Shown: positions 10,015 through 49,376 of the stretch, piece after piece
Position numbering within the stretch: position 1 is the stretch's first letter
Layout: the number at the start of each line of letters is the position of its first letter
NCBI GenBank assembly: GCA_964187785.1
Contig: OZ076409.1
Location: 60,080,001-60,144,000 of the forward strand
Length of the DNA: 64,000 nucleotides
DNA from: Amphiscolops sp. MND2022
Taxonomy: Eukaryota
Reading direction: 5' to 3'
Notes under the pieces: model-generated
Seen by the model: only the letters and a program-made list of their open reading frames with translations
Database searches by the model: none
Told to the model about the DNA's origin: nothing
Made by a program: the position numbers and the translations under genes

Positions 10015-10252
10015 GAACATTACGCCCAAAGCGAACATTACGCCCTAAGCGAACATTACGCCCAAAGCGAATATTAAGCCCAAAGCGGACAGTTAACGAA
10101 ATGTCCTTAGGCGTGATGTCCGTTTTTGACGAAATGTCCTTGGGCGTGATGTCCGTTTTGGACAAAATGTCCTTGGGCGTGATGTCCGTTTTGGACGAAA
10201 TGTCCTTGGGCGTGATGTCCGTTTTGGACGAAATGTCCTTGGGCGTATTGTC
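10015..10252. repeat. Fold-back minisatellite (18-bp x~4 facing 33-bp x~5)
   Basis: GAACATTACGCCCAAAGC units followed by CGAAATGTCCTTGGGCGTGATGTCCGTTTTGGA units that contain the reverse complement core. A related short TIR element lies at 26034-26160. Confidence 0.85.
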
Positions 10253-16447: not shown

Positions 16448-17240
16448 AGAATTGAGTTTTTCAAGGAATGTACATGTTTTATGTTAACCTAATAATAGTA
16501 AGCAGTTAGTATATGACATTGAAATTAGAACATTAAAGGTGAGCCGGCTTTCGAATCTACCAGCTTGTTTTCCATTTTGTGTAAGTTTTTCATCATTTTC
16601 ATCAACCTTTTTTCACCTTTCTCCAAATTTGTAGTATTTTTCATTATTCGGTTTTCATACCTTGTCTAACAAAGTACATCCATTATCATAATTGGATCTG
16701 AGCCAGTTGCTGAGAGCTCTCTGAAAATCTATGATACTATTGCTACCAAGTACACGAATGTAGAAGTGAGGGGTTCCCTGAGACGTCCTAACTCAGTGTG
16801 AAACCTCTTGTTATTCTTGATAAAAATCTTTGCAAGATGCTTATCAAGAGTGTCAAGAATTCGTACGACCCAACAATATCTTGTCATGAGTGTCAAGAGA
16901 AAAGCTAACAAATGTGAATGAGAATAAACAAAAAGTTTCGTCAACTTCAGCTTTATCAGTATCAAAGTCGTTGACGCTACCACCCCAGTTATCACAACTT
17001 GAAATTCAATGCTGTGCGTTGTCTTGTAACCAAAATGAGAGACTCTTACCAAGGGCTCTATTAAGAAGCTCAAGAGGTTTGTGTGAAGTAAAAATGAACA
17101 CGATTTTATCAAGGCTTTCAAAAGTGAACGGGAATATGTAAGAATGCGCAAGATTTTGGCAAGAGTTTCAAGATTTTTTGTAATAGGTAGTGAAACACCA
17201 TGTTTCAATACTTCCTGTTAGAAGCCTGTCAATGATGTTA

Positions 17241-18780: not shown

Positions 18781-20805
18781 AAAGCGGTCAAGAAGCATGA
18801 AATAAGGCCGATTGTGATGAAAAACCATATCTTCACCGCGATTTGCATGCACTAAATAGCAACGTTTGCGTCGTTTCTCATAAACATGCTCGTTCTGAGA
18901 TCAATAATTTCCATTTTGTGATGTAATTTAAACAGGAAACCCGAAGATCATCCGTGTTTCACCCGAAGAAGAAGTTATAGATTCAGTTCGAAGAAGAGTT
19001 CGACGAAAAACTATACTAGCAGAGCTTACATGAATTAAAACCTCATTTATGTTGAAACAAATGTACTTAAACTGCAACCACGTGACAATCCTGCCGACGT
19101 TGTTACAAGTATAAATGAGGAGCTCTTAAACAAACTTCGGAAAAAGACATTCGAAACAAGTTGAAAAATGCGTCAAAAACCGTAGGTCTTTTCGACAATC
19201 AGTGAGAAAACTATCATCAGTCCTACAGTGTCGTAACTTTCCTCACTATTGTGAGAGTCTACAAAACTCTCCCTAGGCAGATATTTTTGATTGAAATCCA
19301 CCTTCGATCGATTAGGACGCGATGTATGGCTTGAATTAGCTTCAGTGTTCCTGTGTAGTCCCGAAGATTGAAAGTCACCAACTTTTTCGAAATCTAATCG
19401 CCAAACTTTTCAAAATAAAAAAAAATCGAATGGATTATTCCTGAAAACAAAATTATATTTCTTATTATACATGAAACAATGAATTAAATACGAAATCTTA
19501 CAAAGTGAAAGTGGAATAGTACGTATGTACGTATGAACTACGTGTCAATCGATTGGTGACCGTTTTATTGAACTGTCTAATTTTGGTCCCTGTCGTGAGC
19601 ATTTTCATTAGCACTGTCAAACTACTAATTAATAGTACAACTATGTAATAAGAGTGATTCATAATTATGTACTACTTATGTAAAAAGATTGAGTAATTAA
19701 TCCTGTGTATGCGAATCAAACAGTGGAATTATAAATCGACCAGTGTAGTTATCAGAACAACCCGTAATTACCAGAACAACATGTAATTAGGGCGATGCAC
19801 AGTGTAGGTAGTCAAATTGCGTAGAAACGATGTTTGGTGTAGACTAGTCATTTACAGTAATTTCTGCTGGTGTAAACTGGTTAATTTACCAAGCTGTGTC
19901 AACTAGTGTAATGACTTATCAATGCGTGTAAGGTATGACAAGTGTAAATCTTCCAAAAAAAATATTCGCGCTCTGATTGAACAAAGATTGAACTAGCAAA
20001 AACTTGCTAGTTCATTACCGGGATGTGTCTCGTAATGGTGTCATTTTGCGGTAAATTCATTTTCAAGCACACCTAGACTATTCTGGAATTGGGAAAATAC
20101 TTTCCCAGCCATTACTGAGTATATTGCTAGCAAAGTCTAAGCGTTTAGGTGAATTTTGATTTCACCTAGGTTCATGGAAATTTGACCAGTTAACTCTGCG
20201 CTCATCACCCTAGTCGTCTCAGTGGTCACTTTGCTATTCTCTCTACTATTCGTATTCAATAAGGACCTAAAATCCTCCCCTATTGAGTTTGTATTTTCCT
20301 GTAGTCCTCCGGACACTGAAACACTTCTACTTCTGAGCGCTCTAGGCAGTGTGACGTTATTTCCGACATAGAAGAAATGAAAAAGATTTTGAGAAAGATT
20401 CTGAGCGGTTGAGTAAGAAAATGATTCTTTTCAAATGAATAGAATCATTTTCATATCCAATCCTTAGAAAACTTCCCAACATCATATTTATATCTTTCAA
20501 GTCTGATTTTACGTCAGTTCACCTAAAGCGCTTTTCTTTAGCTTTCTGTTTTTAGTTGAAAGCATCACGAAGAATGAATACTATTCAAAACAATGTAGGA
20601 ATGAACTCGGTAACAATAAATGGAGAACGTCTTATGATTTGCACAGTAATGATACGCATCGCTCGAGAGTTTGTAAAAAAAGCTCCCCTCCTTCTCGTGT
20701 TGTGGGTGTTTATACCATTTAGTCCATGACACGCGCAAAGCCCGGTGTCACGTCACTAAACATAACAGCTACGTCACTGAGGCTATCATTAGTCTGTTGT
20801 TTTGA

Positions 20806-21122
20806 CTGAAGCGTTACGTCAGTTTTTACATATGGTATACAACTAGCAACAACAGCAATACTATGTGTCATAACAAATACATGCTGGTAGTTGATAAAAT
20901 AATACATAGTAACTATAGAACTGAGCGTCTTCATGTTCTGTATCAGCTATTTACATATAGTTGGCTGAAGCGTTACGTCAGTTTTTACAAATGGTATACA
21001 ACTAGCAACAACAGCAATACTATGTGTCATAACAAATACATGCCGGTAGTTGATAAAATATTACATAGTAACTATAGAACTGAGCGTCTTCATGTTCTGT
21101 ATCAGCTATTTACATATAGTTG
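20806..21122. repeat. Tandem duplication, 2 x 159 bp
   Basis: Units start CTGAAGCGTTACGTCAG at 20806 and 20965 and are nearly identical. Confidence 0.92.
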
Positions 21123-26600: not shown

Positions 26601-28299
26601 TGTCGCAGACGGCCGCCTGCGATGGAAATTGGTATACGATTGCATATGGATACTGCAGGGCTTTACCCGGAACAATCCCATTAGATTGAGAGGGCACAGT
26701 GATTTGAGCCAGGAAGTCCAAAGGAACTATTATCAGAACTTTTGTGATAAAAACTGTTTTGTATTATTGTATTACGTAATTCCATACATTTGATAATAAT
26801 ATTGCTCTTAGTTATGCGATAAAACATGCAATTATACTTAAATTTGCTTTAAATTGGACACCAAGGCGTACAGGTAGAGGAAACGCGTTCAAAGTGTTTC
26901 CTCTCCTGTCAGCGCAGACAAGCAGTCCAATTAAAATCAACCAATCACAGGACGCTATTCATTTATTTGCTGTGCTGTATTCATTCCCGTGCTGTATTCT
27001 AAATTAAGAGACTCAAAGGCCATATGCCGCCTAACTGACACAGTCTTTATACCAAACAAAGGCGCGTGGACACTGAGTCCAAAATTGAATATAAGCTGGT
27101 GCGAATACTAGAGATAGTAGTGTGCTATTTTAGAAACGATGCTACTTTAGAAACGCTTTGATTAAACTACATCTCTGAGATTACAAAAGGACTTCCAGTC
27201 CTTTCCCCCCCCATCTTTGCTTCCTTCCCAAAATATCTTGGGTAAAGAATTAGATGAGTAATTTATGCCATGGAAAGCTGTAAACAATGACCCATGAGTC
27301 TATGTACCATTTTGTGTGTACCTATTACATGTAATTAACATGAAATGTTCTACATGTAGTGTTGCTGATGAAATACAATTGAATGGCCTGAAGGGCCACA
27401 TGAACAATCATGAAAGTAGCTGCTACGTTTATATGCGTGCATATACATATACGTGTGTAAATGAATAACGTCATGGCAGTTACTATTTTTAGAAACATGT
27501 TATTACGTTTGTAAAGACACGTTGTCATACATGTCTATTTATAGAATGTTTGTTACTAAAATTAGACTGATGACTCTCAATATTATGTATGTCATGCAAG
27601 GTCAATTATAAATAACCGGGACCCGTGGTCCCGGGGACATAATTTTCCTATGACAAGTCACAGTCAGTTCGTTATTGAATAACCGAATAAAATACTGTTT
27701 GCAAGCTCAAAGATTCCAATTCAAATTCTTTACTCTTGCAACAATCTCTTATGCCTTCTACTAGACGCCAGAAAGCAAAGGCTAGAAAATCTAGAGAGAT
27801 GGACATGTTGTCCGATATAGAAAATATGGACGTGATGTTAGGAAATGGGGGTAGCAATCCCATAGAAAGAGAATTAACTGATGCTATTGAACAATCATCA
27901 GTACAGGGAGACGTAGAGTCGAATGAACACTTGGGAAATCAGTATACTAGCTTTGCTTATGAAAATAACCTTCCTAGGCAAGATGATATTAGACAATCCC
28001 TTGAGACCTTTTCAAATGAATTCAATCTCAGATTATCACAAGAAATGGATTCAATGATGTCCATGATGCATAGCCAAATAAATAGGGCTATCAGTAGTGC
28101 TATCGCAGAAAGGGTTTTCCCGAAATCCAGAACATTGTGAGTTCTATGTCCTCTTCAGTAAACAGGGACACTGAGGCCAGTGTATCGCCAAATAGCCAGG
28201 AAAACAGGGAATGTTCATCCGGGTTTAAATCAAAATTTGCAAAGAAGGACTCACAGTCTGCATGTGATTTAAGAGACATTGCAGGTCGTAGTTATTACA
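26601..28299 (+). repeat. 5' LTR (1699 bp)
   Basis: Starts TGTCGCAGAC and ends GTTATTACA. About 15 substitutions and one 1-bp indel (~28116) versus the 3' LTR, counted by eye. TATAAATA at ~27607, TCAGTT at 27664, AATAAA at 27686-27691. Confidence 0.97.
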
Positions 28300-29438
28300 T
28301 GGTGACAGGAGCTAACGAAACCCAACAGCCAATTCCCGAATTCCTGTCCGGACGAATCCACTCAATCCCAAACCTGGAGAGACAACAATCTAACCACAAT
28401 GTCTCTCTGGATACGACTCTGCCAGCTCCAGACCCTGAGGTCCCAGAGTCAACCCAGGACCCGCTCAACAGATTGGCTGACGTATTAGTCAATCTGCAAA
28501 ACAAACCACAAACGATGACCATCCGACCAGTCCAAACCACACCAATGACATTTGACGGGAAAAGTGAAAAATTTGAACTTTTTGAGGACCTGTTCCACAC
28601 AATGATCAAAATGCAACCGGCCATGACAGAGCAAATGAAAATTAACCATTTTCACTCCTTGCTCAGGAAAGGGGCCCTACAAACTTTCAGGAACATAAAC
28701 TCAATTAACCGTCAAACACTTGAGGACGTACTGGTCATATTCCGGAGGAAATACGTCAAACCGGAATCCCAAGCAACGGCAAAACATAAATGGCATCGGC
28801 TCACTTTTGACCCCAACACCATGAAATTGCCAGATTTCTTGGAAGAACTGAACCAGGGGGCAGAAAAAGCATTTGGCGAAAATGCAAAGAGCATGATTGA
28901 CAGCTTATTGTACGCAAAATTGCCTCCAAAACTCAAACGATCTGTCAACATGGCCCGCCTGGAGAACGGTACATACGAAGAAATTGTCGCTCATCTTGAA
29001 AGAGAGCTTGAACTCAATGCATTGGAAGAGTCTGATGACTTACCAATGGCCACCATGGCCTCTGCGTCTACCAGCAACAACAATTTGCTGTCGAACGGCA
29101 TAAATACCAATAAAGACGCACAATGCTCTTATTGCAAAGCCACAGGCCACTTTTATAAGAGCTGCCCCAAACTGAAAAAGAAGACGGAATTGGAGGACAA
29201 AAATGGCAAAAAGCCCCAACGCCCTACATACCCAGAATGCCCTACTTGCGGAAAGAAAAATCACCCCGTTGAGAGATGCTGGAAAGGGGCTGGAGCACAT
29301 TTACGCCCCAAAAGGACACGTCCTGAAGATAAGGCTGATGACACCTCTGGAGATGAAAAATCATACAAGAAGTCAACTAGCCCCGAAACCACATCTTCAA
29401 GTCATTCATCTTCTCGAAAAACCGATTCAAAAAACTAA
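27751..29438 (+). pseudogene. gag: Gag (~562 aa reconstructed; one 1-bp deletion at ~28116)
   Basis: ORFs 27736-28140 and 28137-29438 fuse when the A present in the 3' LTR copy (AGGGTTATTCCC) is restored. Capsid-like region TFDGKSEKFELFEDLF...HFHSLLRKGAL. Two CCHC knuckles: CSYCKATGHFYKSC and CPTCGKKNHPVERC. Confidence 0.92.
28300..28312 (+). promoter_or_regulatory. Primer-binding site, tRNA-Leu-like
   Basis: TGGTGACAGGAGC immediately follows the LTR terminal CA. It resembles the TGGTGTCAGGAG type complementary to a tRNA-Leu 3' end; the tRNA identity is tentative. Confidence 0.8.
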
Positions 29439-32400
29439 TTTCGCCACGACTCCAAGTTTCCAACCAGATGTCAGTGCGACAATATGTCATATCTGACCCA
29501 CCAAACATTATTTATAAACAAACTCAAAACGATACCACAGGAATGCCATCGACTGTCTGGCAGCAGCAAATGGCCAACGCCCGCATGGAAACTCAACATA
29601 TTATCCATAGCGACCACCCATACTTATATAGACGTACTAGCTACGACAACGACTCGGAAACTCACTTTCGCCCCTTACAAACTGTCGAAGATTATAACCC
29701 TCAATACTATGACCCCGAGTATGGCAAAGACCCGTACTGGGACGAAGAACTATATGACAAAACCAATTTACAATTTCGAAACGAAGATTACCCTCCAACT
29801 GACGACGAGGACGACCCAGACATTGAAGACAACACACTGTCTCGGGCCCTCATTGATCTTTGGCAGCCAAATTTTGATGCAATAATACAAGGAGTAGACG
29901 CCACTCAACAACAGGAAGGCCACAAAGCCTCTAACAGCCTTTTAGATGAAACGGCCTTCCTGCATCTCTTAGTGGCCAAGGAAGGAGAGCCATCCTACGT
30001 TCCCCTTTCAACAAACCTTGGGCTCAAATTTAAAAGACGAATGCTCTATTTCCCAATGGATTTTGGAGAGTTAACCCTAGACGGCCTAATCGACACTGGA
30101 GCCCACTCCAGTGCAATACCGGAAGCAGACCTTAGAAAGATACGCCTATTGGCCCCCCAGTCGATAGTAAAAGAAGGCCCTGCTCCATCTTTCCAAATAA
30201 TGGTCGCAAATGGTGATTTAGAAACCCCAAAGAGCACAGTCGAACTAAAATTGGAGGTGGGAGACATAGAATTTCATGAAATCTTCATTGTAATGGAAAA
30301 ACTGTCTAGCCCCATAATTGGACTGATGTTGCTGCAGAGGAACCACACCGTCCTGGACATGCGCCAAGGTATACTCAATTTCCCTTACTTCTCGATGCAA
30401 TTAAAAACGGCCGACCACAAGTATTCCAATGTAATGGAGCCAATTCTCAACCCTGAAGACATCACCATTCCTCCGAATGACCTTGCAGTCATCTCTATAC
30501 AGTCCCAGATCTATGCCGAAAATGCAGTCACGGGGATATTACAACCCAGTGACCTCCTCCATGAGGAAGGCGACGTCACATTTTGCGCCGCCATAGTCAC
30601 ATTGCACGAAGGGACTATGAACATACATGTCAATAATTTCACTGATCAACCCTACAAACTTAAGAAAGGGTTACATATTGCGAACTTCTCAGTGATGACT
30701 CCTGAACAAATGAAACATGTCCGACCAATAGACCCGGTGTCCACCTGGCATCTATTGAACGGAAATGAGGAAGACGCCATTTACTATTTTAGCAGCCTTC
30801 TTAAGGCCAATAAAAACAACGACCAATATGAACAGTATTGGTTCCCGACACCTGAGAACCCAGGGGACGAAACAACACATACGCCCATCCAGCAAAGAAT
30901 TCACAGAGAATTACGAAATCTAAAAGATATAGAAAATCTTAACCCGCAAGACAATGCTGAATCTAGACAAAAATTCCTTAGCAATTTTGACTGGAAGGAT
31001 TCAATGCTACAACAGCATGAAATCAAACAAATAGAAGCTCTTTTGGTAGAATTTAATGACATCTTCGCCCGACACAGATTTGATATCGGCGTCAACGAGG
31101 AATTTACGGTCAAATTGACCCCGAAGGACGATTCATCAGCTTATAGCCGGAGCTTACCTACCCCAGTCAATCTCAAAGAGGATATATTGGTGGAACTGGC
31201 TTTACTTCATAAATATGGTATTATAACGACACTACCATTCTCAAAGTATGCCAGCCCCATATTCGCCCAGAAAAAACCCAATGGCAAATTAAGACTACTG
31301 GTTGACTTGAGGAAAATTAATAATCTCATATCTGACGATTATATCAATAACAATCACCCAGTCAGCACCTTAACGGATGCCGCGCAGCATATGGCCGGGA
31401 AAAAGCTTTTCTGCAAACTTGATTGCTCGCAGGCCTATCATTGTCTCCCAATGGCCGACCAGAGGTCTATTGAAATGCTCGCTTTCAATTTTGCTAGCAG
31501 GACCTTTGCCTACCGCAGATTGGCGCAAGGCCTCAGCAGAGCCTTATCGGCTTTCTCCAGTTTTATGCGAGAGTATTTAGACCGGGTGATCAAAGCAGAT
31601 CAATGCGCACAATATGTGGACGACATTGGCATCGCAGCCAATGATGCCGAACATCTCATAACCAACCTCAGGGCTCCTTTTGAATGTATCAGACAAGCCG
31701 GACTCAAACTGTCCATGCACAAGTGCCACTTTGGCACTACCGAAATTGACTTTCTAGGGAGAACCATTACCCCTGAAGGTGTAAAACCCCAAAAAGAAAG
31801 AATCACTAACTTCTTGGAAAAGACGAAATTCCCAAAGTCCAAGAAGGCCTTACAACGCTATCTTGGTTTCCTCAATTACTACAGGAATTATATTCCAAGG
31901 CTATCCGAAAAACTAGTTCCCTTCTTCCAATTGCTCAAAAAAGATGAGAAGGTACTAGTGACGCGAGAGCTGGTTGAACAATTTACTGAGATCAACCGCG
32001 ATTTAGACCGATGTAGTCAATTGGCGTTGAAACAACCTCTGCCGAACAAACAACTGGTCCTCATGACTGACGCAAGTTTTACAGCAGCCGGTTACGCCAT
32101 ATTGACCGAAGACGACCCAAATCAAAAACACACTTCTGTTAAAAAATCCTATGCGCCGATTGCATACGGATCTAAAACTTTCACGCCTTCTCAGCTCAAA
32201 ATGTCGATATATGCAAAGGAATTCCTAGCTATATATTATGCATTTAGAGACTTTGGACATATATTCTGGGGAACACCTCAACCTGTGATTATTCTCACAG
32301 ATAACAAATCGGTTACGAGGTTCTTCCAAACCAAGATAATTCCACCGCCACTTTGGAATGCTTGTGATTTTGTAATTCAGTTCAACTTCATCATAGCTCA

Positions 32401-34541
32401 CATTCCAGGCAAGAACAACACAGCGGCAGACTACCTGTCCCGCAGGGAAATGGACCCCACTGAAAAGTTGGTCCTGAAAATACGAGAGGACGTAGAAACT
32501 AGACCGATCGAAGTCAATGTCCAATCGGCCGGCGTGTCAGAGGAAGAGCAAATTTTCTTCACTGAGGAGGACAACGAAACAGAAGAACAGATTTGGGAAC
32601 GGAAAAAACAATCCAAAAAAGGACTCATGGTCCCTGAGACAGTCATCCACATTGATGCCATATCGGAAAATACAATAGAAGAAATTACCAATTTCACACA
32701 AAAATTACGACGAACTAACCAGATACATACTGCTTGAACAGTGTAAAGACCCGATTCTGCTCCAATTGAAAGCAAAACTTCAAAAGGAAGAATTTGCTGA
32801 AGAAATCCTACAACAAGATATTCGGTATAAGTACTATTTGAACAATATAGACCGAATAGTCCTTAAAGACGAAATTGTGACAAGACAGTACTATGACGAA
32901 ATTGGCCAGATCAAATATCATCAAATTCTGTTACCGAAGCACTTAGTTCAAGAACTATTACAAGCAATACATGGTACAGCACATCGCCATCCAGGCATTT
33001 CTAAAATGCTACAGGAAATTCGCCAAAAATATTACTACCCAGGAATTGCAAAACATGTCAAAAAAAGGGTCGAAGGATGCGAAACATGTGCCAAGGACAA
33101 AAGGGCCCCCAACACGGTAATTACCCCAGAATTACTAAATTTGCCCGAATGGGACCTAGGGCCAGAAGATGCCATGCAAATTGACTTATTACCAAATTTA
33201 CCAACCAGCGGCGGATACCAAACAGTGATGACTGCAATAGACGTATTTTCAAGATATCTTTTTGCCTAGCCACTCACTGAGGCAACAGCCGCAAATGTAG
33301 CTAAAGTCATTATCGATATAATGACAAAACACTCGTATTTGCCAACAACACTCATCACGGACAAGGGGTCCGCATTTACCTCAAAAATTTTAGAAGAAAT
33401 TACTGAGATATTGGGAATCACACTGAAATGCGCCACTACTAAACACCCGCAAACTATTGGCAAACTTGAAAGGACTCACGCCTCTTTAAAAACCAACCTG
33501 AAGATGGCCTCAGGGGAATATCGTCGTCAATGGCACAAATATTTACCATTAGCAGTGCTCAACTATAACACTACTTATCACGCTAGTAATGGTTGTGAGC
33601 CTAGCAAAGTCTTCCATGGCCGAATCCCCTACAATGTCCTTGATCATAAATTAGGAAATAACCCTAATAAAAATTTCCTACCAACAACTGAATTTGCGGA
33701 AGAATTACAGCAGAGGACGCAAATCCTCATTGATCAGACAAAAAAGAATATTATGCAGTCGTATTTAAAGTACAAGGAGTACTACGACCGCAAGGCCAAA
33801 GCGGCTCCGCTACAAGAGAAAGACTACTGTTTTGTTCTTCAACCGAAAGCGGATAGTCAAGGCTCCAAAATACCATTTAGGGACTTCCGATGGATTGGTC
33901 CCTTTGTCGTCCAAAAAACCCTACCAAATAACAATTATATAGTGCGTCGTTTAAATACGAATAAAACGCAGATCTTGCACCGGATCAGGCTCAAAAACTT
34001 TGTTCCAAACACCCCATTAGAGGACAAATTTAAAGAAGAGAAATTACAGCCTGATGAGGAGATAGTAATACCGCAAGATGATTTGTATACCATCTCATGG
34101 GAAGCGGACTTTGAGTACGAGCTATTCGAGCCGAAGACAAATGATTGGCCACACACGGCCACGCGTCTGCCACAGGACGCCGCGAACGGAGAAGTCGACT
34201 ATTACGTCACCGAGAATGAAAGCAGCAGCGTAAACGAAAGTGAGCGCAGCAGCGAGAGAATGAATGACAATGACGTCAACGAGAATGAAGTACGGCCAAG
34301 ATCGGCCAGCATCCGTGACGCGTCGTCCCCTCCGAGCGAATCGCCTAGTAGGACGGAAAATGAAAATGACGTCACAAATGATTTAGAAAATGAGAAAATT
34401 GCTTCAAAAGGAGGCGTAGATATTACCGTGCCCGGAATATCGGAAAATGAAAGAAATGAGGAAAATCCTAGCCCTAGAGGAGGGAAATGTTATCTTCGAC
34501 CTAACCCCAACCCCAACTTTACTGATGAATAAAGATACTAG
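29435..34541 (+). pseudogene. pol: Pol polyprotein (protease, RT, RNase H, integrase) with few lesions
   Basis: Protease LIDTGA; RT LRLLVDLRKIN, KLDCSQAYH, YVDD; RNase H LMTDAS, YAKEFLA, ILTDNK, ADYLSR; integrase HGTAHRHPG...CETC, QIDL, ITDKG, KLERTH. Lesions: 4-bp ATAC duplication at 32723-32730, in-frame TAG at 33267-33269, probable premature TAA at 34530-34532 (FTDE*RY*). Confidence 0.95.
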
Positions 34542-34766: not shown

Positions 34767-37700
34767 TTAAGGCTTAGATGCAGATTGCACGGGCCCTGGA
34801 GTAGAGGAACCTCCCATCGGTGGTGATGCTGATCGGAAACCTACTTTCCGTTTCCCCTTCCCAGGAGACTCTTTTCGACGCTTGCTAGTAGTAGGTGAGG
34901 TGGACCTGGAGGCCGAGCGACTGGAAGATGGCGACTTGGTTTTCTGTGAGAGAGACTTATGCTTCTGCCAAAGAATCTTGTAGAAATGAGCTTTTCCAAA
35001 TACATCAACATGAGTCCAAGGGTCTCCAGCCACATTGCCTGTGTTGAATTCCTGCTCTATCTCTCGTAACTTGCTGAGAGAATCATCCTTGGTGCAAATG
35101 GATAAAGCTTCAGTAACCCGGGCCAGGTAGGATTGTGCAGGCAAAAGGACATCTCCCCAACTACACTTTGGCCTTTGAGCGTGAACATCGTGGAAGCGGA
35201 TGGGGGGAAGCAAAGGAGTGTTTTCAGTTAAGCACATACAGCTTAATTGGAACAGGCGGTAAAGATGAGCCCGATTACGGAGTTCAGGCATGGAAGAAAG
35301 CAAATTGATCATGTCGGGAATACCGTTAGGGGCGTCCTTCAAAGAATGGTAGGCCTGGCGGAAATGTCCAATAAAATCCAGGTACTCATCGCGGCAGTCA
35401 TTTTCAGGCGAACCTTCAAGCCAACCTCGGAGACTGAAACTCTGGTAAAGCGCACTGAAACAAAAGTTGGCTTGCTCGAGCGGTAGACACAAGAGGATGC
35501 TAGGGTCGAAGCAGGCCATCCCACACACAATGTTGGCGTTTAGACTAACATGGCCCAGAAAGTTCTCTAAGAGGGGTACAATATAACTCCTCGCCTTAGC
35601 TACAAACTTCTCCTTAGCCTCTTCAACCAATGAGGTCATGTTGGAAATAGGCCCCTCTTGGTCACAATGGTCTCGTTTCACCTTGGCTGTTGCGGCAGCA
35701 TCCAGGTCTTGCTTTAACCTCAACCGAGTGAGGAAATCTCGAGAGGACAATTGACGGAGATCAGCAGTTCGGAGCACGGGCAACTGCGTCCAGTCAGTAT
35801 CTTTGGGGAGGTGCTTTGGTAAGAGGGCCCGATAACAGAGTTTTCTTACAAAGTTGTTCAGCTGGCCGAAGGTAAAAAACCCCGAATCTCGGTGTCCCAC
35901 CAGGCTCCTTTCGAAACAGATGTTATCTAAACAGTGAGAACGAATAATAGCAAACTGCCCTCAACGTCTCCTGGACTTACCAGACTAGTTCTCCTCCCTT
36001 AAACATGAAGTATGAAGCCTAGACAAAAGATACTTACAATCGTACACGATTCTTCCGTAGAACTCCAATTTCAGCAAGAAGAAGTCGTCGCTGATGATTT
36101 GCCACTCAAGGCTTTGTGGCTAAAAGGAAACAAGAATCACCAGCTATGATCGGGCTATAAGGGGGTAGGAATCAAACCATGACCTAAACCAGCTAATAAG
36201 GCAAAATTCCAACCTTGTTCTTGACTCCAGCCATTTCATAATTGGGTGCAATCAGAGTGATGTGGTCCAAGAATGCTGTCCAATTCACTATGATCTCCGA
36301 GCATATGGTGGGGATAGAAAGGAGACGCAAATCCCAATTGCTAATGGCCCACAAAACAACCTGACGTGATAAAAATGTACGAGGAACTCGACTTTGAAGC
36401 CCAAAGCATAAAAACCAACCTTAGAGAGTTCAGGGGCTTTGACCATCCAAGGCTCGTCCAAACTGTGGGTTAGATATGCCAGCAGATATTTGAGTTGCGA
36501 ATAAAAATCGATTCGCCCAAAAACACTTCCTTCTCGTTTGTGCATAAGTTTGTGGAGAGATGTCACTTGGTAACGAAAAGGGTACTCGATACTCTTCTTT
36601 AACAAGGAAGACTCCTCAACGGCACGAAGAACACTAGCAGTACATCCACTCATGCAGACTATCTGGGGGGCTGTGGACAAGAGTGACAAGAGTCGTGCCA
36701 CGACGAGTAATTGACTTCGATCAGGATCAGCGGCCAGGCTGTACTGGAATAACTGGAGCTTCACGAAAAACCCTAACTTCCAGTAACGGAGCGATGCAAT
36801 CTCCTTGCTTCCCTGTGGCTCAAATTCGATCGAATATAGTCCGCTGTCATTAACTGTCTGCGCCACATCCTCCATTCCACGTAGGAAAACGTGATGGAAA
36901 ATAGCCTGAAACAGAATTCTTACTTAAAAGAATATAGAGGACGAATAGTTTGTTATGGATCCTTCCCCTTTTTCCCCAAACCCATAATTAAAGATGAGGT
37001 CAGTTAACGCTACACATACCGTGATTCTGGTGGAACTCCAGTCAAGATTCCCGAACAGCTCCTGGTGATTAGTGAAATTGCCGACCTCTGTCCAGAGTCC
37101 TTGCAGGGTCGCGAGATCGCCGAAGTACGGGACAAACCGCCCAATCAGAGATATTTGAGTCCCTGACCGGATGTCTTCAAAATTAGTCAATCCCCCTGCA
37201 CTTGACATATATTCGTCATAGAAGGGGAACCGTGGGCCGATGTCAACTAGAGGAACTGACTCAAATAGTGGCTTTTCTTTCTCCAGCTCAAACAGGGTAA
37301 GGATGTGCCCATCTCTTCCTCTGACGGAATGAATGACGTTGCCAGAAATTTTGTCGACCTTGCCAAAATGCTCAAACCTCCATCGCTGGTCTCTACGCAA
37401 ATGGCCCTCGGAGCTGTAATGCCGGATGATCTCTCGTGCACCTTTCGAATATATAGATACGTTGGTCTTACATATCTGGCAATAAAATTTGTGCTTGTTA
37501 TGCACGGGGTCAAGGGGGCCGGTTACAAACACTTTTGTCCACTGTATTCCCTTGAAGTAGGAGGACTTCATCACCTTGCCAGGTCGTGGTTGCAGTTTGC
37601 GCCTTTTTTGAGGAGGGCTAACTTCGGAATGTTGATGCTTGGTTTGTGGACACATCTGACAGAGAGGCTCATAGTCGCCCTCGCTGTACCCTGGACTAGG

Positions 37701-38794
37701 GATGGTGACATCTCCTGATTGTGATGTCACGTTTTCTCTCCTCGTCGCAAGTGTTTGAGTTGCGGAGGTACTTGCATCGGAATCAACTTCCTGACCGAGA
37801 ATTGTACCGGTTATGTCTTCATCAGTCTCATATGCTCCGCTGGTATACCCGTCAGTCGTATAGCCTTCACTGTCCGATTCCCCTTCAGAACTAGCTGATG
37901 TGGCCCTTGCAGGAGGCTTCCTCGGATCAGAGCTTTTCTAAGCTGCCCTGTAGTGTGTCCCTTTCCTCCGTGGACAGCATGCAAAACCAACGACCGCATG
38001 GCATGCAGAGAAGACTTCACAGTTTCATCCGAAATTGTTTTTAGCACGGCATGAATTTGGGGTTCGGTGAACGCAACTGTAGTATGTCCCCGAGGAAGGT
38101 CAACGGGGGCACTTTGAGCGAAATGTTTACGCAGCATAATTCGCCCATTAGCTGACAACTCCGTTGGCAGGGAGGGCCCTTTCTGTGATGAAGGTCCTTG
38201 TTGACTGGTGGTGTTTGAACATTCGGGCTCTGGGGATTTTCCTGGTGCAGTTTGTGGATCAAGTTCAACTATGCTGGATGTGGGCCTGTCAGTCAATCCG
38301 TCCACGCCCGCACTGTCGTAGACGCTTTCAACTTCACTGGCATCCGTCTCAAAATAACATTTTCTCTGCTCTTCTCCGATGTCAAAAGTACCAAGATCGA
38401 ACAAGTCGGCTTTCTTCTGTTGTCCAATGTTGGCCTGCTCTGTTCCAGACTGTGAGGCGGATAGGGCCTCTGACTCAGAAACCTTGGGAGGATGTGGGCC
38501 TGCCTCTCCTTGGGGGAAACCTTCGCTTGGTGCTGACAAAAATGTGACGTCCAAACTAGAATCCATCTGAGCTAAGTGATGTAAGGTCTGTTCCGCGAAT
38601 GTGGAAAGGCTCTCTTCAGTGTTGCCACTGCTCGAAGATAGGTTGGACAAAGGACGAACTCCAGGGAGGACATCTATCTCAGTCGGTCTCTTCCCTTGGG
38701 AAGGGTCAGCATGCCGCTCTGGCAAGCCTTGGACAGGAACGCCGGGACCAGCAGTAGTCAATTCACTATTTTCAGTTTGCTGTTCAGTCGCCAT
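34767..38794 (-). CDS. Spliced antisense accessory gene; hAT-transposase-like protein with BED-like zinc finger (~1216 aa; one frameshift at ~37915)
   Basis: Exons 38794-37020, 36905-36420, 36360-36214, 36119-36038 and 35926-34767. GT-AG introns of 114, 59, 94 and 111 nt join these exons in frame with no internal stops. Zinc-finger motif CQICKTNVSIYSKGAREIIRHYSSEGH. Confidence 0.85.
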
Positions 38795-40059
38795 GCCTAA
38801 GCAAAAGGAAATAAAATCAAGCGGGAACCTTCCTGAATAAGAATCCATCACCGCTTTAAAAATATTCTTCCGGAAGTGAATAATCTGAACTCGAGTGAAC
38901 ACTAGAGTTATTGGACAGGAAGTACGTGAACGGAAGAGAGTTCTGATCAAACCTCAAAAGTTCAATTTTGAAACAGAAAACTGAAAAGAAACCTTAGCCT
39001 ACTGACCTGTTTGAGCGTGGTCTCCAGGGAACTTGTTGTCGGTGTCCTCCATGAGAAAGGATGTATTGAGACAAATTGTTGTTGCTCGGTGCAGATGGTA
39101 AGATCACTGTGGTGGGAGTCGCAAAGCTGGGGACTGGATGTCGATTTTCCGCAGTGTTCCAGAAGAATCCACACGGATAAGGACGAGTGGACACTGAGTC
39201 CAGGGATGAAGCCGGAATGTAATGGAATGAAAATATAAATAGAAGTGACCTAAAGTCTAACTATCGACTAAAATAGAAGTGGATAAGTACAATGATGGTT
39301 AAATACCGGATAATAGAAGAACAAAAAGTTAAATTGAAAGTAAGGAATTGAAAAGACGAATAGGCGATGTGACAAGATGTCAAGATTGGAGTTCGTGGCT
39401 ATACAGTTTGGTGTCAAATTCATTGCTATTTACAATTTATGGCATTATGTGGATAGAGTCTGCCAGCGATATCTACATTTTCCTTATTTATTTCGAAAAC
39501 TTTATTTCGCAAAGTTATTTCATGATTTTATTTTATTTTATTTTACTTTATTTTGTTTTCAAGGCCATATTATTTTATTCCTTATATGGATTTACGGCCT
39601 TGGATCGCCATTTTATCAATGGAATCATATTTACGAAATTTGATTGGTTACCACCAGGAAGGCGAGACAGCGTGGCCTCCGACCGAATTCTCACCCTCTT
39701 AAAACTTTCAAAAGGACTATGAGTGTTAATAAACACTCATCTCGGTACTTAAGAAGTGAAGGTGATGATGAGGGCCATGAGTGTCAATACTGCCGCTGTC
39801 GGCAATTTCAAAGTGATTATAATAACTAGTTAAAAGAAAGTTACCCGGAAAATTTTGTTATTGAAAAATAACTCGGAATCGAAAAAGGAAAACCCGGGGA
39901 ATAGCAAACCGGGAGGCAACGAGACTCAGCGGACTGATAAGAGAAACGATCGCCATTATTAATTTTTCAATCGATCAGATCAGTCGCTCTAGAAAAGCCA
40001 CCTCGACTTGAAACTCTTACATTATCAAAATTGCCAAGAAAATATTAAAAACCAGATCA

Positions 40060-40880
40060 ATGTCTGATTTTCCTGAATTGTTCCCTATGGACTTCCTGGG
40101 TGCTGCTCTATCTGAAGGGGCTCCTGCAATAATTTATATCTCAAGTGATGAAGACGAGAGAATGGACTCCTTCGACGGAGACTCGGTGGATGACGTTAAC
40201 GTTTCATCTGAAGAAGAAATGTCAGACATCGAAATTATGGCGAGATGTGTAGAAAGACAAATGGCTGAACCCATTGCTATTCCTAACTCTGAAAAATCTG
40301 AGACTCAAGTTAGGTGCGGAACGCCCAGACCGGACTTACCGCCCTTCCCCGTCTTCACTCAGCACTTTTTCAACCTGGGCATGGGCAATGGGCCTATTGG
40401 GAGAGATGGCCGTGTAAGACCTAACCACCCTATCAATATCTGCAGGGACTTACGACCTAACGTAGATAGCCCAATGTCACCACCGCCAGAAGACAGAGGG
40501 CCGAATTGTGGACAAGAAACACCAAGCTGTTCCTACTCTACGGACCCTACCCCGGTCGAAAGCGTGGCTAACCACTTCAATGACATGACGGTGTCTGGGA
40601 ATGCTGGCTTACTGGGCTGCTCAGACTGTGTGGTCTGCGGGAAACCAGTCCAGCAAATACAAGACGAGACAGTCAACGACTACCTCAGCAAAACAGTTGT
40701 CCCAGGAGAAACACTGGCTGAGACTGAGAGAAGAAAGAGAGCTTTCTTGGACGGCATGGCAGCTGGAACATTTTATTAATGCCAGGGGGAGTGTCGCAGA
40801 CGGCCGCCTGCGATGGAAATTGGTATACGATTGCATATGGATACTGCAGGGCTTTACCCGGAACAATCCCATTAGATTGA
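40060..40880 (+). CDS. Accessory sense ORF (ORF3), unknown function; probably extends into U3 after a 1-nt deletion at ~40774
   Basis: 239-aa ORF 40060-40779 with an acidic N-terminus and CSDCVVC. Adding one T to the TTTT run continues it as FLLMPGGVSQTAACDGNWYTIAYGYCRALPGTIPLD* to 40880. Confidence 0.7.
40784..40791 (+). promoter_or_regulatory. Polypurine tract
   Basis: AGGGGGAG directly before the TG of the 3' LTR. Confidence 0.8.
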
Positions 40881-42491
40881 GAGGGCACAGTGATTTGAGC
40901 CAGGAAGTCCAAAGGAACTATTATCAGAACTTTTGTGATAAAAACTGTTTTGTATTATTGTATTATGTAATTCCATACATTTGATAATAATATTGCTCTT
41001 AGTTATGCGATAAAACATGCAATTATACTTAAATGTGCTTTAAATTGGACACCAAGGCGTACAGGTAGAGGAAACGAGTTCAAAGTGTTTCCTCTCCTGT
41101 CAGCGCAGACAAGCAGTCCAATTAAAATCAACCAATCACAGGACGCTATTCATTTATTTGCTGTGCTGTATTCATTCCCGTGCTGTATTCTAAATTAAGA
41201 GACTCAAAGGCCATATGCCGCCAAACTGACACAGTCTTTATACCAAACAAAGGCGCGTGGACACTGAGTCCAAAATTGAATATAAGCTGGTGCGAATACT
41301 AGAGATAGTAGTGTGCTATTTTAAAAACGATGCTACTTTAGAAACGCTTTCATTAAACCACATCTCTGAGATTACAAAAGGACTTCCAGTCCTTTCCCCC
41401 TCCATCTTTGCTTCCTTCCCAAAATATCTTGGGTAAAGAATTAGATGAGTAATTTATGCCATGGAAAGCTGTAAACAATGACCCATGAGTCTATGTACCA
41501 TTTTGTGTGTACCTATTACATGTAATTAACATGAAATGTTCTACATGTAGTGTTGCTGATGAAATACAATTGAATGGCCTGAAGGGCCACATGAACAATC
41601 ATGAAAGTAGCTGCTACGTTTATATGCGTGCATATACATATACGTGTGTAAATGAATTACGTCATGGCAGATACTATTTTTAGAAACATGTTATTACGTT
41701 TGTAAAGACACGTAGTCATACATGTCTATTTATAGAATGTTTGTTACTAAAATTAGACTGATGACTCTCAATATTATGTATGTCATGCAAGGTCAATTAT
41801 AAATAACCGGGACCCGTGGTCCCGGGGACATAATTTTCCTATGACAAGTCACAGTCAGTTCGTTGTTGAATAACCGAATAAAATACTGTTTGCAAGCTCA
41901 AAGATTCCAATTCAAATTCTTTACTCTTGCAACAATCTCTTATGCCTTCTACTAGACGCCAGAAAGCAAAGGCTAGAAAATCTAGAGAGGTGGACATGTT
42001 GTCCGATATAGAAAATATGGACGTGATGTTAGGAAATGGGGGTAGCAATCCCATAGAAAGAGAATTAACTGATGCTATTGAACAATCATCAGTACAGGGA
42101 GACGTAGAGTCGAATGAACACTTGGGAAATCAGTATACTAGCTTTGCTTATGAAAATAACCTTCCTAGGCAAGATGATATTAGACAATCCCTTGAGACCT
42201 TTTCAAATGAATTCAATCTCAGATTATCACAAGAAATGGATTCAATGATGTCCATGATGCATAGCCAAATAAATAGGGCTATCAGTAATGCTATCGCAGA
42301 AAGGGTTATTCCCGAAATCCAGAACATTGTGAGTTCTATGTCCTCTTCAGGAAACAGGGACACTGAGGCCAGTGTATCGCCAAATAGCCAGGAAAACAGG
42401 GAATGTTCATCCGGGTTTAAATCAAAATTTGCAAAGAAGGACTCACAGTCTGCATGTGATTTAAGAGACATTGCAGGTCGTAGTTATTACA
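40792..42491 (+). repeat. 3' LTR (1700 bp)
   Basis: Near-identical copy of 26601-28299, preceded by a purine tract and followed by the TSD CCCAC. Confidence 0.97.
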
Positions 42492-43931: not shown

Positions 43932-46900
43932 TGTAGTATTTTGAAAAGGTTACTAGGTAAAAACGAATTAGTAGTAGGAGATTTCTTTATGGCTCAATAT
44001 GAAAGATGTTCACGACTTTTTCTATCTACACTCTAGCAAAACATGTATAAAATGGTATCACGATTTAGTACAAACAAAAAGGGTTGTTAACAAATACAAC
44101 AAAACAAAAGAAGTCATTTGATAATTGCTAGTCTAAAGTCGTCATTGTTTTTGATTGGCACTTTTTTCCGAATAATTCGGTTCGGTATTTTACACCGTAT
44201 AACCGGTTATCAGTTCTCCATCCGCGTGGAGATTTAGCTCGTCTTCCGGTGATGTTGTAAATGGCCGGTATCCGTCTCTTTCGGAAGTGTCATTGTTTTC
44301 GAAGTCGCTCTCTTCGTCTTCTACCTCTCCTTCTTAGCTCTCAGTGTCGGTTTGGGCTTTTTTATTTTGCACTCTTTGAGTTTTCCGTTTAATACATCCC
44401 TCAGGATTTCATTCCATTGGATGTATTTGCCGTCGACTCCTCTCAGGCAGTGTCTGTTTTTCGGGGTGATGGTGTCTCCGATCTTCGGTGCACGTTCTGT
44501 TTTCTTTTCTTTCGAACTTTTCTTTTTCGGTGATTTTTCTGTCATTGCTTTCTCTTCTGTGTTTGTCTGGGCAACGACAAGATGGTTTGATACTTCTCCG
44601 TCACTGTTGCGTGATATAATATTGGTATCTTCGGTCTACTTTCGGCTGGAACGGATCATTTCAACCATTTAGACAGGAATGATTTACCGCCTTGTATTAA
44701 ATTTGTACGTTCGGTTCTCCGTTTTCGGCTGTGATGTAATTCAAATGGTGTTTTTTCAATCCCGTGTGTATTTTAAGTAGCATTACGTTAAATGCTCTAA
44801 TTACGCAATCGGTGAAACACAGACTGTCTTCCAGATTGGCTAATATTAGGTTCTTCGTCGTCTGTATAGCACCTTCTCCCGCGCCGGTGCCGGTATGTAG
44901 TCTCAGTGTACTATATTCGATTTCAATACTTCAGGATTTGCAAAATTCTTTATATTCTTTCGACTTAAACGCTCTGCCTTCGTCAAGTTCAATTTTTTCG
45001 AGAAGTCCGTATAAATTGAAATTTTGGTTTAAGAAGCTCAATTCTTCTTTTGTTTCCGACGACTTGCAAATTTTTGCGGTTGGCCATTTACCGAACCTAT
45101 ATACGGCTATTAATAGTTGTTATTCGCCGTTTAATTTTTTGTTGTTCAATTTCCCGGAGAAATCATTTTTTCTATTTTCCCGGTTCGGTTAATGTTTGTA
45201 GTTCTCTTGTTTCATTTTTTGGTGTTTGATAGATTAAATTCTTACCCGATGCCATGCAATCTACACAGAATTTTTTTCGGTCTTCGTTATCTATGGAGAT
45301 GCTTGGCCACCAATATACCCGGGCTTCGGTTAGCATTTTAGTTGTTTCGGCGTGGCCGAAGTAGTGTTTCCATTAGGTTCTTTCTCAGTTCTGCTGAGAC
45401 AAAAATTTTCTCGTCGTTAAATGTTTGTCCCCATGTGTTGCATAACTTCTCAAATGTCGGTAGATATTGCTCTAGTGCCGTGTTCTTCTGTCCTCGTCTC
45501 ATGGCATCTCTGAACTGGTTGAGCTCGGCGTCGGTGGCGGACGCAGCAATGAGCGTCTTTAGGTCAAGCATGAAGTTGAATTCTGCTTTTTTTCACTTCT
45601 TCGGCGGCAGTTTTGTCTCCGGTCTTCTTGTCGATGATTTGGTTGATTTGGATAAAATGTGCTTCCTTTCCGTCAGCGTTGTAGGCCTTCAATTCTACGA
45701 TCGGGAAGTTGTCTCCTACGGTCTTCTGTCTTTTGCCTTCACTCTCCAGTTCATTCTGTTCGACCTCTTCCCGTGGCTGATTTTCTTCTTTTCTGTCTTT
45801 GAGTGGCTGGTATCCTCCGTCGAATCTATTTGCTCGGTTGAGCAATTCTCCGTCTATTTCCGCTAATTCTTCGCGGCTCTTTTTATTGGGTCTTGGCGGA
45901 ACTCAAACTTGGCGTTGACCATTCAGGTCAAACTTCCTTCTCATCGTTCCGGGGCGTGATACTAGCCTCCGATCCACTAGTCTCCGGGCTTTTTTTCCTC
46001 TAATTATCTCCATGATTTCTGCGGTATCTCCCCAGTGAAAGTAATCTTGATCCATGTTTCTCTTTGGAGAAAATTAATTTGGTGAAATTTGATTTGAATT
46101 TTTGTCGGTTGAAATAAAAGTTTCGAACTTTTCTCGGTAAGTGATGCAAATTTCGCTGTTATGTGCTGTTTCTTAACGTTTCAGTCTTCGTCGAACGTTC
46201 TAATGCGTTTTGGTTGGTTGTGAGATTTTATTTCGCTCGTTTTACGTATTTCGGTAGTGCTTTGTGATTCGTCCGCGAGAAGTGAGCCGTATTAGATGTT
46301 TATTTCGGCTTGCTCGGAAAGAACATTTATCACGTATTTTTCATCCTACGCGTTTTCGGTCGTTACTTCTTCTACCGCATTTCTACTTAGAAAGTCGGTA
46401 AACTCTAAATTACTTCCTGCAATGTGTTGGAGGGCATTATCAAAGTGAGCTAATCGATCTAGCCATCTTGTTAGCTTTGCGCTGTATTGTTTATTACACC
46501 AGTTTCTTTTAATCAACGGTTCATTTGCTTGATGGGTCTGTATAACGAAAGACTTTCTTCCCGTATAAATAAAATCAAATTTTTGTAAGCCCGATACCAC
46601 GGCTAATAGTTCCTACTCTCCAATCGAAGAGTTTTTCACTTTCGTTTAAGTATCTGCCACCGAATGCTATCGGTTTAATTTCTCCGTACGATTGTTTTTG
46701 ACACAATGTTATTCCAAGACTTGCGTCGGTCGTCACTATGTTTTCCCGGTCTTTCGCATAGTGAGCCAGACAGGGTTCGTCGGTTAATAACTTCTTAATG
46801 CTCTTGAAATCATCTTCTTGTTCATTTCCCCAATCCATTGGGATCTTTTTTAATAGTCCTCGCAGTCTTTCGGTCCTTTCCTGTAGTGTCAGTAAAACTT

Positions 46901-49376
46901 TTGCAAGATATTGGATTGCTCTCAGTAAGGATTTTAATTGTTTTTCATTCTCCGGGTGTTTCAGATCAATAATTGCCTCCACTTTTTCTTTGTTCGGTTT
47001 ATTACCGTTTCCATCGTTTCATCGTTTTCATGTTCGGCCATTTGTTTTGTTTAGGAAAAGATTGGATTACTTTTCACTTGCTAGGTATCCAGCATCTTCT
47101 AGTTTGTTCAAAACAATGAATATTTTCTTTTCGTGATCTTCCTGGCTTCCTCCGGTTTCGAAAATTATGTCGTCTTACCGGGCAGGTGTTGAATATTCTA
47201 ATGTTCGGTCAATTGTTTCTTGAAAGATAGTCAGGATGTCGGCCAATCCGTAAAAGCCTTTCTTGAATATTTAAAATCCGGTAAAGTTTCCTTCGGTTTT
47301 TGAGATTACACATTGTCGGCTGGCTTATTTTGACAAATTCATCTGGCCGTATGTGTAGTCTAAATCTATTTTCGAGATCATTAGATTCTTTGTCCGGTCT
47401 CTAGTGATTTCTACAGAAATTTGGTTCAAAAACTCCTCCAAGTTTTGCATGTGTTGTCTGATTTCGTACAACTGTCGTTTAATGTTCTCCAATCTAATGC
47501 GATCTTTTTTGAATTGTCATTTTTTTACCGTGATAACCATCGGGTATACGAAACAATCTTCGTCCACGTGTTTCTCTTTCTCCAAGTGTCGCGTTTTTAT
47601 TTAATTTTTCCACTTCTTTACCGACTTCTTTTTGGAGATGTAGTGGTATCGGTCTCGCTTTTTGTTTTACCGGATAATGTACCGTTTGAGTTGCATATTT
47701 ATTTCGGTATCTTTTATTGTAGTGTTGTTCTTGAATAGATCCGGAAATTGTTCGATCACTTGTTTCTTTTCTGATTGGTTATTTTCGTCCAATCGGAAGT
47801 TTCTGATCGTCAAGTTGAATTTCTTTAACCAAACCATTCTGAGTAGCAATGTTATGTCATTTCTTTCGGTAATCAGTACTTGAATCTTCTGTTTGTTGTT
47901 CTCGTATTCAAAATCTACCGGTATTTGTCCGCGGAATTTCACTTCATTTTTGTTAACATCTTGATACCGATGTTTTACATTTTGGATTTCGGTTTCCTTC
48001 AGGATGTTGTCGTCTGCCGGCTTTTTTGAAATTGGTGATCCGGTATCAAACATAAATTCTTTTTCGGTTCCGTTTATTCTCACTCATGTCGTCAAGTATT
48101 TGTTTTGGTCGGTAGTTCTATTTATCTTCTCAATCCGGTGTATGCTTGATTCTGATTGGTCAGATTTGTTTCCAATCATTGTTGCTTCTTCTTCGGTAAC
48201 ATTGCGTATTCTCGTTTGTTATTCTCCTTTTGTCTGCATGCTCGTGCAAAGTGTCCTTTTCTTCCAAAGTTATTGCATAATTTGTCTATTGCCGTGCAAT
48301 TGTTTGAAGGGTTCCAGTTTGGTGCGTTGCAGATATTGCACGGTTTTTTATTTGTTGTTCTCTTTTTCGGTCTAGTACCGAATTTTTCTATTTTCGTATT
48401 GCTCCTTCTTTTGTTTTTCCCGGTTTGTGATGAGGGCTGCTGGTATGTTTTTTTGGTTTTTTCTTTCGTAGGTGTTCTGTTTGACCATTTCGATTGTTTT
48501 TTTCAAATGCAGTTTCATTTCTTTCATTAATTCGTCTCAGATTTTTGTGTCTGTGATTGCGGTATAGAATTTTGAGATGAGTAAATCTTCGGCTGTTATT
48601 CCTTCGAAAGCGCACTTTTTTTCGATTTCTATCAGTCTTCGCTAGAAATCTTCCGGTCGGTGTCTGGGCTTCTGACTGTCTGATCCAGACGAATTCTGCG
48701 CGGTTGTGATAAATGTTTCGTTTCGGTAAGAAGTTATTCGTTGAACAATATAATCAAATCTTTGATCTTTATTTTGTCCGGTTCTGTTTTGTACTCTGCC
48801 CGCGTCATTTGGTATGAGGCTTCGGGTCCAATACCCCATTTGAAATCTTTTTGTATTTCTCATTTTCTTTTTCGACCCAACCGTTTTGTGTTATGTCAGC
48901 TCCTCGTATCAATTCGGCAAAATTTATCTTGTATTTTCTCTTTGATTTTTGTCTGAATCTCTCGAGCCACTGTTTTGGTGTATAAATTCTTTTCCCGTCT
49001 GATGTGGCCTCGAGGTTCGGTACTTCAATTTAACTTGTTTCTTGGGTCATCTTTTTTGTTGCGGTAAAATTAAATGTTTGTTAGTAATGCTGACTGCGCT
49101 ATGTAATATTTTGTAAAGGTTACTAAGTAAAAACGAATTAGTAGTAAGAGATTTCTTTATGGATCAATATCAATGGTGCTCACGACTTTTTCTATATATA
49201 CTCTAGCAAAACATATGTATCAAATGGTATCACGATTTAGTACAAACAAAAAAGGTTGTTTACAAATACAACAAAACATAAAAGAGTCATTTGATAATTG
49301 CTAGTCTAACGTGATCACTGTTTTTGATTGGCACTTTTTCCGAATAATTCGGTTCGGTATTTTACATCGTATAACA
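43932..49376 (-). mobile_element. Decayed Ty3/Gypsy LTR retrotransposon (possibly Mag-like)
   Basis: ~273-bp LTRs at 43932-44204 and 49102-49376, roughly 90% identical by eye. TSD GTATA at 43927-43931 and 49377-49381. Degenerate PBS TAGCGCAGTCAG on the minus strand at 49101. Fragments: protease FMFDTGSPI (47667-48083), RT/RNase H IVTTDAS and LTRWLDRLAHFD...DFLSR (46346-46982), integrase remnants ~44750-45400. Many stops and frameshifts. Confidence 0.9.

Follow-up and report, generated by a model that had tools for sequence, protein, structure and literature searches.

Judged by its conservation across copies, ORF3 of a Ty3/Gypsy LTR retrotransposon from Amphiscolops sp. MND2022 is a real third gene and represents a new accessory-protein family within a known class of element. 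The window, which is the whole stretch of 64,000 nucleotides analyzed here, contains the element as one complete, young insertion of 15.9 kb. Whatever its function, ORF3 represents an unannotated protein family and a case of protein-coding constraint extending across the polypurine tract (PPT) and into U3 outside the retroviruses.

The host element and the extent of ORF3

The 5' LTR (26601..28299, +) and the 3' LTR (40792..42491, +) both begin with TG and end with CA, and a 5-bp target-site duplication, CCCAC, lies just before the first and just after the second. The LTRs are 99.06% identical (16 differences in 1700 columns), and this similarity, together with the CCCAC on both sides, shows the insertion to be recent. 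The primer-binding site (TGG..., 28300..28312, +), identified directly from the sequence, is read through by the gag frame, and its likeness to other such sites would make tRNA-Leu a candidate primer. The order of the genes, gag (27751..29438, +; DUF1759 at E 1.8e-5 and a weak zinc knuckle) followed by pol (29381..34532, +) with protease, a dUTPase-like region, reverse transcriptase (RT), RNase H, and integrase, is that of Ty3/Gypsy, as are the TG...CA LTRs, the duplication, the primer-binding site, and the PPT (40784..40791, +). In this copy gag is broken near 28116 and pol near 32700 and 33267. An RT search returned 932 matches at E<=1e-30, and RT clusters contain up to 1547 members; the 120 RT matches listed are 75 to 96% identical, except for one at 49%. 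The family is thus very abundant, with hundreds of copies. The dUTPase-like region between protease and RT is weak (about 30450-30700, +; Pfam E 0.012), and PF00692 occurred on 3 of 120 pol relatives among the matches listed.

ORF3 has its ATG at 40060 and is open for 239 aa (40060..40779, +), ending at a stop codon at 40777-40779 after GTFY. A tail in a second frame (40776..40880, +) then encodes P-G-G-V over the PPT and 29 codons within U3 before a TGA at 40878-40880, which is the extension that an earlier, sequence-only reading of this DNA had expected of a one-base repair. Comparison with other copies identifies the frame break near 40771-40776 as a lesion of this particular copy, whose product, being frameshifted, would be without the U3-encoded end.

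Other copies were compared at the protein level. With the 239-aa open part as query, 65 proteins were retrieved at E<=0.001 (48 to 96% identity), and the profile search that had been recommended as a check found 386 representatives at the same threshold, the best 150 of which were examined. The full-length form of about 273 aa predicted from the repaired frame was found in the nearest cluster of 70 members, the representative of which shows 96% identity; there, 10 of the 15 members listed are 273 aa long. The modes of a second cluster (163 members) and a third (66 members) are 272 aa (7/15 members listed) and 279 aa (13/15 members listed), and full-length forms mostly span 271 to 279 aa. The last helix motif is held by 125 of the 265 family proteins examined; in 97 of these 125 the reading frame stays open across the PPT and reaches the U3 motif, and a single protein terminates within 8 residues, contrary to the possibility that other copies would also end at GTFY. 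The end point is well defined, falling 28 to 31 residues past the LTR-start codon in 82 of the 97 proteins that continue into U3, and 61 of 70 full-length matches end exactly at the profile end, an end kept by lineages at 26 to 38% identity. The U3 was matched in the ORF3 frame by 128 of 265 proteins, versus 17 in the other two frames together.

No ORF3 relatives were found in the viral or metagenome contigs searched, and no Pfam family matched ORF3 or the 87 alignment members at cut-off. The best match in a sequence search of the PDB (E 0.21) was judged to be chance, the ESM Atlas gave no usable match, and Rfam gave none within the 64-kb window. A literature search found no account of this family, although one may exist in subscription papers, Repbase, or supplements.

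To assess coding constraint, we used decayed copies translated in shifted frames, which reveal the third positions of the true frame, and counted unique variable nucleotides in columns with local identity of >=45%, dropping ambiguous changes. Third positions accounted for 31 of 40 variable nucleotides in the ORF3 body (0.46 expected, p=5e-5; 14 proteins) and for 14 of 18 in U3 beyond 40815 (0.44 expected, p=0.004; 18 proteins), and at the amino acid level the U3 part showed 24 synonymous and 5 nonsynonymous changes. No such excess was seen in the PPT (4/8), in the first U3 codons (4/8), or in small flanking controls before the ATG (6/11) and after the stop (1/4). These counts indicate that the U3 codons of ORF3 are constrained as protein code. 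Codon-level conservation in the first 90 nt of U3, which the earlier reading had proposed as a check, is seen beyond 40815, and the case against the gene that had been set down in advance, a lack of coding constraint, finds no support in these figures.

Conservation within ORF3 peaks at the first nine U3 codons (pairwise identity, 0.80); the remaining U3 tail (0.32) and its last block (0.56) still exceed the linkers (0.12 to 0.17). A 20-nt near-perfect palindrome at the LTR start (40794..40813, +, and 26603-26622), read directly from the sequence but absent from the earlier reading, overlaps these codons, so that their identity mixes DNA and protein constraint. By itself the palindrome, a 7-bp hairpin with a z of -1.27, is not significant. 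Even distant subfamilies show hardly any variation in the codons it covers, and this near-invariance may reflect a binding site for integrase or another protein. The overlap with the palindrome and PPT, together with the missing third-position excess at that point, is what could be expected if the frame were kept for cis reasons (PPT, LTR end, or RNA structure) and encoded no protein. However, the third-position bias of the ORF3 body and the rest of the U3 part, the alternation of conserved blocks (pairwise identity, 0.42 to 0.56) with linkers (0.12 to 0.17), and an ordinary RNA fold over 40776-40885 (z -0.16) largely refute that explanation, which we consider very improbable.

Because gag begins inside the LTR and ORF3 runs into U3, coding sequence overlaps both LTR ends, the overlap at one end being mirrored at the other. 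The gag start (27751-28312) comprises about 180 codons that run through the LTR end and the primer-binding site, and an open copy of the Gag N terminus is also present in the 3' LTR (41942-42491, +).

Anatomy of the ORF3 protein

The chain begins with 50 disordered, acidic residues, followed by a helix at residues 51 to 69, predicted to be amphipathic. Next comes a Pro-rich region, which includes a conserved block, and after it a CxxC knuckle, a hairpin of two helices, and a predicted beta-hairpin encoded in U3. The three motifs from which the sequence-only reading had argued, IIYISSDEDE, VNVSSEEE, and GCSDCVVCGK, are all present where it placed them: residues 24 to 33 (40129..40158, +), 40195-40218, and 40615-40644, respectively.

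Conservation was examined in 27 full-length proteins, nonredundant at 80% and drawn from 70 full-length matches. The pattern hydrophobic-hydrophobic-x-hydrophobic-S/D/E, resembling a SUMO-interacting motif (SIM), occurs in 20 of the 27, versus 0.6 expected from shuffles, a contrast that is inflated because the pattern was written after the motif had been seen; it occurs in 1 of 92 control windows from the disordered region of the antisense protein described below. When only the plain hydrophobic core was counted, 20 of 27 proteins had it versus 6.6 expected, and such cores are common, with 4892 reported in the yeast proteome in the accessible part of one study (PMC4476178). The assignment of IIYISSDEDE as a SIM-like motif thus stood up well, with conservation in 20 of 27 lineages and a pairwise identity of 0.51, whereas VNVSSEEE, put forward as a second such site, proved weakly conserved (0.39) and lineage specific. 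The core followed by S-S-D is kept across lineages more than 2 substitutions per site apart. In a tree of the family, the motif is retained in most deep branches and is absent from one well-supported clade of four. SIMs occur in either orientation, and in three of these four proteins an acidic-then-hydrophobic (reverse) site lies further on, which suggests a pattern expected if the SIM changed orientation. Another possible reverse-orientation SIM-like site, SDIEIM (residues 55 to 60; 40222..40239, +), lies at the start of the predicted helix in this copy.

The ORF3 motif has the features of a phospho-SIM as defined in the accessible text of PMC4476178: a V/I-rich core of four residues, flanking serine and acidic residues, and a disordered setting. 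IIYI also fits the reverse of the SIM consensus given there. The phospho-SIMs of PML, PIAS, and HCMV IE2 are likewise described, in the parts of the reports available, as lying in a disordered region and having serines and acidic residues after the hydrophobic core (PMC4476178, 10.1101/655282). Those proteins bind SUMO demonstrably, whereas the likeness of ORF3 to them is at the level of the motif. We consider it probable that the N-terminal motif of ORF3 is a phospho-SIM.

A conserved block at 40426..40485 (+) carries C128 and a [ST]-P-x-S-P motif (23/27) resembling a proline-directed phosphosite. Downstream, the CxxC knuckle (C190 and C193) precedes a confidently predicted two-helix hairpin (40627..40764, +; hairpin residues 197 to 235, pLDDT 89-96 in blocks), and the U3 beta-hairpin is predicted with middling confidence. 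The cysteine cluster noted earlier is conserved as CxxCG (24/27) and not as C-x-x-C-x-x-C (4/27), its first cysteine being lineage specific. Candidate metal ligands are C128 (30/31), H172 (27/32), C190 (31/32), C193 (29/32), and C251 (31/31), whose codon at 40809-40811 lies inside U3. The invariance of C251 may be a DNA-level effect, because the residue sits in the LTR palindrome where a third-position excess is absent (4/8). In the structure model (pLDDT 63.9, pTM 0.31), the U3 segment 242-250 has a pLDDT of <50, too low to place these candidate ligands relative to one another. A fold search with this model, effectively covering residues 184 to 238, returned generic helical-hairpin matches only (best Z, 5.2), and a viral fold search with the same coverage returned no match at E<=0.001; an earlier model (pLDDT 48.9) was too poor for fold searching. 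No nuclear localization signal is conserved; 20 of 27 proteins do contain a stretch of at least three K/R, but mostly within the helical hairpin.

The position of ORF3, on the sense strand and 3' of pol, is where an Env-like or fusogenic protein could be encoded. However, none of the 27 proteins has a membrane or signal segment (highest 19-residue hydropathy, 0.82 to 1.61), the chain is mostly disordered and acidic, and no Pfam family is common to more than 2 of 87 alignment members. As ORF3 lacks a transmembrane segment and matched nothing in Pfam, the PDB, or the fold searches, we concur with the earlier view that ORF3 is not Env; barring a spliced exon with a membrane anchor, the Env reading is refuted, and we give it the least credence of any considered here.

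The antisense gene and comparison with known systems

Between integrase and ORF3 lies a 4-kb antisense gene (34767..38848, -), broken in this copy. It has intron-like sites of the GT-AG type and encodes a C2H2 (BED-like) finger, and its last exon is similar to the hAT dimerization region. At least 95 relatives were found for the first long frame, and likeness to them mostly ends at one T-V site where a GT donor-like sequence is present in the window, and the C-x-x-C...H...H finger is invariant in 16 of 16 relatives. The last frame matched Dimer_Tnp_hAT clusters weakly (Atlas feature score, 0.91, with a low recognition value). The antisense pieces had no Pfam match at cut-off, PF04195 included, and the ORF3 profile is unrelated to the antisense protein (probability, 0.2%). 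We rejected an origin of the gene as a nested hAT insertion because its flanks carry no terminal inverted repeats. With at most 15 members listed per cluster, 3 of 40 ORF3-antisense cluster pairs, including the window's own, shared 2 to 3 contigs, whereas none of 45 antisense-antisense pairs shared more than one; these shared contigs, recognized by their length, indirectly suggest that the antisense gene travels with ORF3 by subfamily. The conserved beginning of the antisense gene calls, 'MDS...FISFCL', overlaps a splice-acceptor-like tract (38797-38848, -), and for that reason translation may truly start at the ATG that comes right after 38797, with an intron on its 5' side.

The antisense gene and ORF3 stand head to head across about 1.2 kb, a neighbor that the earlier reading, as with the palindrome, left unmentioned. 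An A-rich element just 5' of the ORF3 ATG (40025..40043, +) recurs in other subfamilies and is a putative internal promoter or 5' untranslated region. Most gene calls that extend beyond the ATG include this stretch in frame, but a coding N-terminal extension of ORF3 was rejected: because sequence further upstream shows neither frame conservation nor a third-position excess (6/11), we read the A-rich stretch as a noncoding element. The location of ORF3 behind a 4-kb antisense gene, with a conserved A-rich element before its ATG, points to an internal promoter, and the head-to-head arrangement together with the recurrence of that element points to a divergent one. The CpG observed/expected ratio is 1.12 at 39640-40059, versus 0.66 to 0.69 in ORF3, the LTR, and the antisense gene, as fits a promoter region.

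The layout of the gene is retrovirus-like, but ORF3 belongs to none of the retroviral 3' accessory families that it resembles in this respect. Like ORF3, HIV-1 nef and MMTV sag/rem are 3' accessory ORFs that run into U3, according to the accessible part of one account (PMC12789967). Those genes are retroviral, and Sag is a type II membrane protein, whereas ORF3 lies in an env-less Ty3/Gypsy element and has no detected homology to them. ORF3 has neither a membrane segment, as in Sag, nor the N-terminal glycine of Nef, which serves myristoylation. Foamy virus tas and bet, as presented there, are regulatory genes that lie 3' of the enzymes, ahead of the 3' LTR, and have a promoter of their own (PMC12789967), as appears likely for ORF3, but no likeness in sequence or fold was found.

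The closest parallels in plants are Retand, Grande, and RIRE2, Ty3/Gypsy elements with a long region between pol and the LTR and a conserved, transposase-related antisense gene whose product is probably nuclear (PMC11963269, PMC7264820). The antisense domain of the Retand type is TRP28 (PF04195), to which neither ORF3 nor the antisense pieces here gave a match; ORF3 itself is sense, and the antisense gene looks hAT-derived and spliced, unlike the TRP28 gene. In the available portions of the Retand, Grande, and RIRE2 accounts, no conserved ORF on the sense strand is described that reads over the PPT and enters U3 (PMC11963269, PMC7264820). Among animals, the LTR elements of bdelloid rotifers are similar to this one in that pol includes a dUTPase region and third ORFs other than Env occur, but the ORF3s listed in the accessible text are Env, TM, coiled-coil, GDSL esterase, or DEDDy exonuclease proteins, none of which is matched here (PMC5408684).

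Proposed function and its alternatives

We tentatively propose, with a confidence just short of even, that ORF3 is a SUMO-binding nuclear adaptor that would sustain transcription of the element in the face of SUMO-dependent silencing, the latter assumed to operate in this host. This reading is favored because SUMO acts in TE and ERV silencing in flies and mammals (PMC7676866, PMC10144533) and because HCMV IE2, a viral transactivator, uses a SIM tuned by CK2 phosphorylation (10.1101/655282), as the parts of these reports available indicate. Its components are given in order of falling strength. IIYISSD(E) would act as a SIM with its serines as CK2-type sites. C128, H172, C190, C193, and the U3-encoded C251 would be ligands of a small zinc site beside the two-helix hairpin, and completion of the site by C251 would explain why ORF3 cannot be trimmed from the LTR. 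ORF3 would be expressed from an internal, probably divergent, promoter common to the antisense gene, and the net effect would favor the element, through activation or anti-silencing, rather than restrain it. A more elaborate version, which is speculative and on balance unlikely, combines these genes in an accessory cassette like that of a complex retrovirus, in which a divergent promoter drives a SUMO-binding counter-silencer with a U3-completed zinc site and a hAT-derived DNA-binding protein that aims it at the element's own copies, giving VANC-like, family-specific anti-silencing via SUMO.

VANC of the VANDAL transposons is a TE-encoded accessory protein that opposes host silencing of its own family, a role that for ORF3 is a proposal only (PMC6719617). 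As described in the available text, VANC is encoded by DNA transposons of plants, and its action on DNA methylation depends on a sequence motif (PMC6719617). No homology between VANC and ORF3 was found. Proven TE-encoded silencing suppressors are rare, the best case in this source being the plant DNA transposon (PMC6719617). A SIM-like motif kept across deep divergence would offer a test of whether retrotransposons attack or exploit the SUMO hub.

A SUMO-binding activator, a targeting factor, and a self-repressor would look alike, whichever the direction of the effect. As an integration or targeting cofactor, ORF3 would use its SIM to tether the integration complex or particle to SUMO-rich chromatin while its C-terminal domain grips integrase or Gag. 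The conservation of the SIM fits this equally well, the small folded hairpin suits protein binding, and the protein, with a pI of 4.05 to 5.7, has no obvious DNA-binding basic surface; however, the ORF3 and Gag profiles are unrelated apart from a 16-column CxxCGK match (probability, 3.9%), and we think this role rather doubtful. As a self-limiting repressor, it would recruit SUMOylated silencing factors to its own copies and so control copy number or the tissue of expression. The motif alone gives no direction, and the host SIM/SUMO partners Daxx, SETDB1, and TRIM28 silence ERVs (PMC10144533). A family as large as this one, with RT clusters of up to 1547 members, fits restraint less well, a weak argument, and we regard repression as the least likely of the three SUMO-binding roles.

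Another explanation dispenses with SUMO and makes ORF3 a Tas/Tax-like acidic transactivator or coactivator, the N terminus being an activation domain that the zinc-finger protein of the antisense gene might recruit to the LTR; the 3' position and likely internal promoter are as in foamy virus tas/bet (PMC12789967, accessible part). The acidic N terminus with its spaced aromatic and aliphatic residues, the amphipathic helix predicted at 51 to 69, and the DNA-binding-type gene standing head to head with ORF3 all suit such a protein. Acidic-hydrophobic stretches mark activation domains too, but activation domains usually drift freely, whereas the exact core-then-S-S-D pattern has been kept over the deep divergence given above, and we place this explanation level with the targeting cofactor.

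The surroundings of the element in the window include other repeats. A decayed BEL/Pao-type integrase region (17187-18404, +) has Integrase_H2C2 and DUF5641 matches. Fragments of another LTR element (46578-48083, -), with RNase H and protease matches in a strongly T-skewed stretch, are bracketed by 120-nt direct repeats at 43930 and 49100. Tandem arrays with units of 18/33, 159, and about 172 nt lie at 10004-10261, 20802-21122, 61268-61842, 1970-2295, and 7776-8103.
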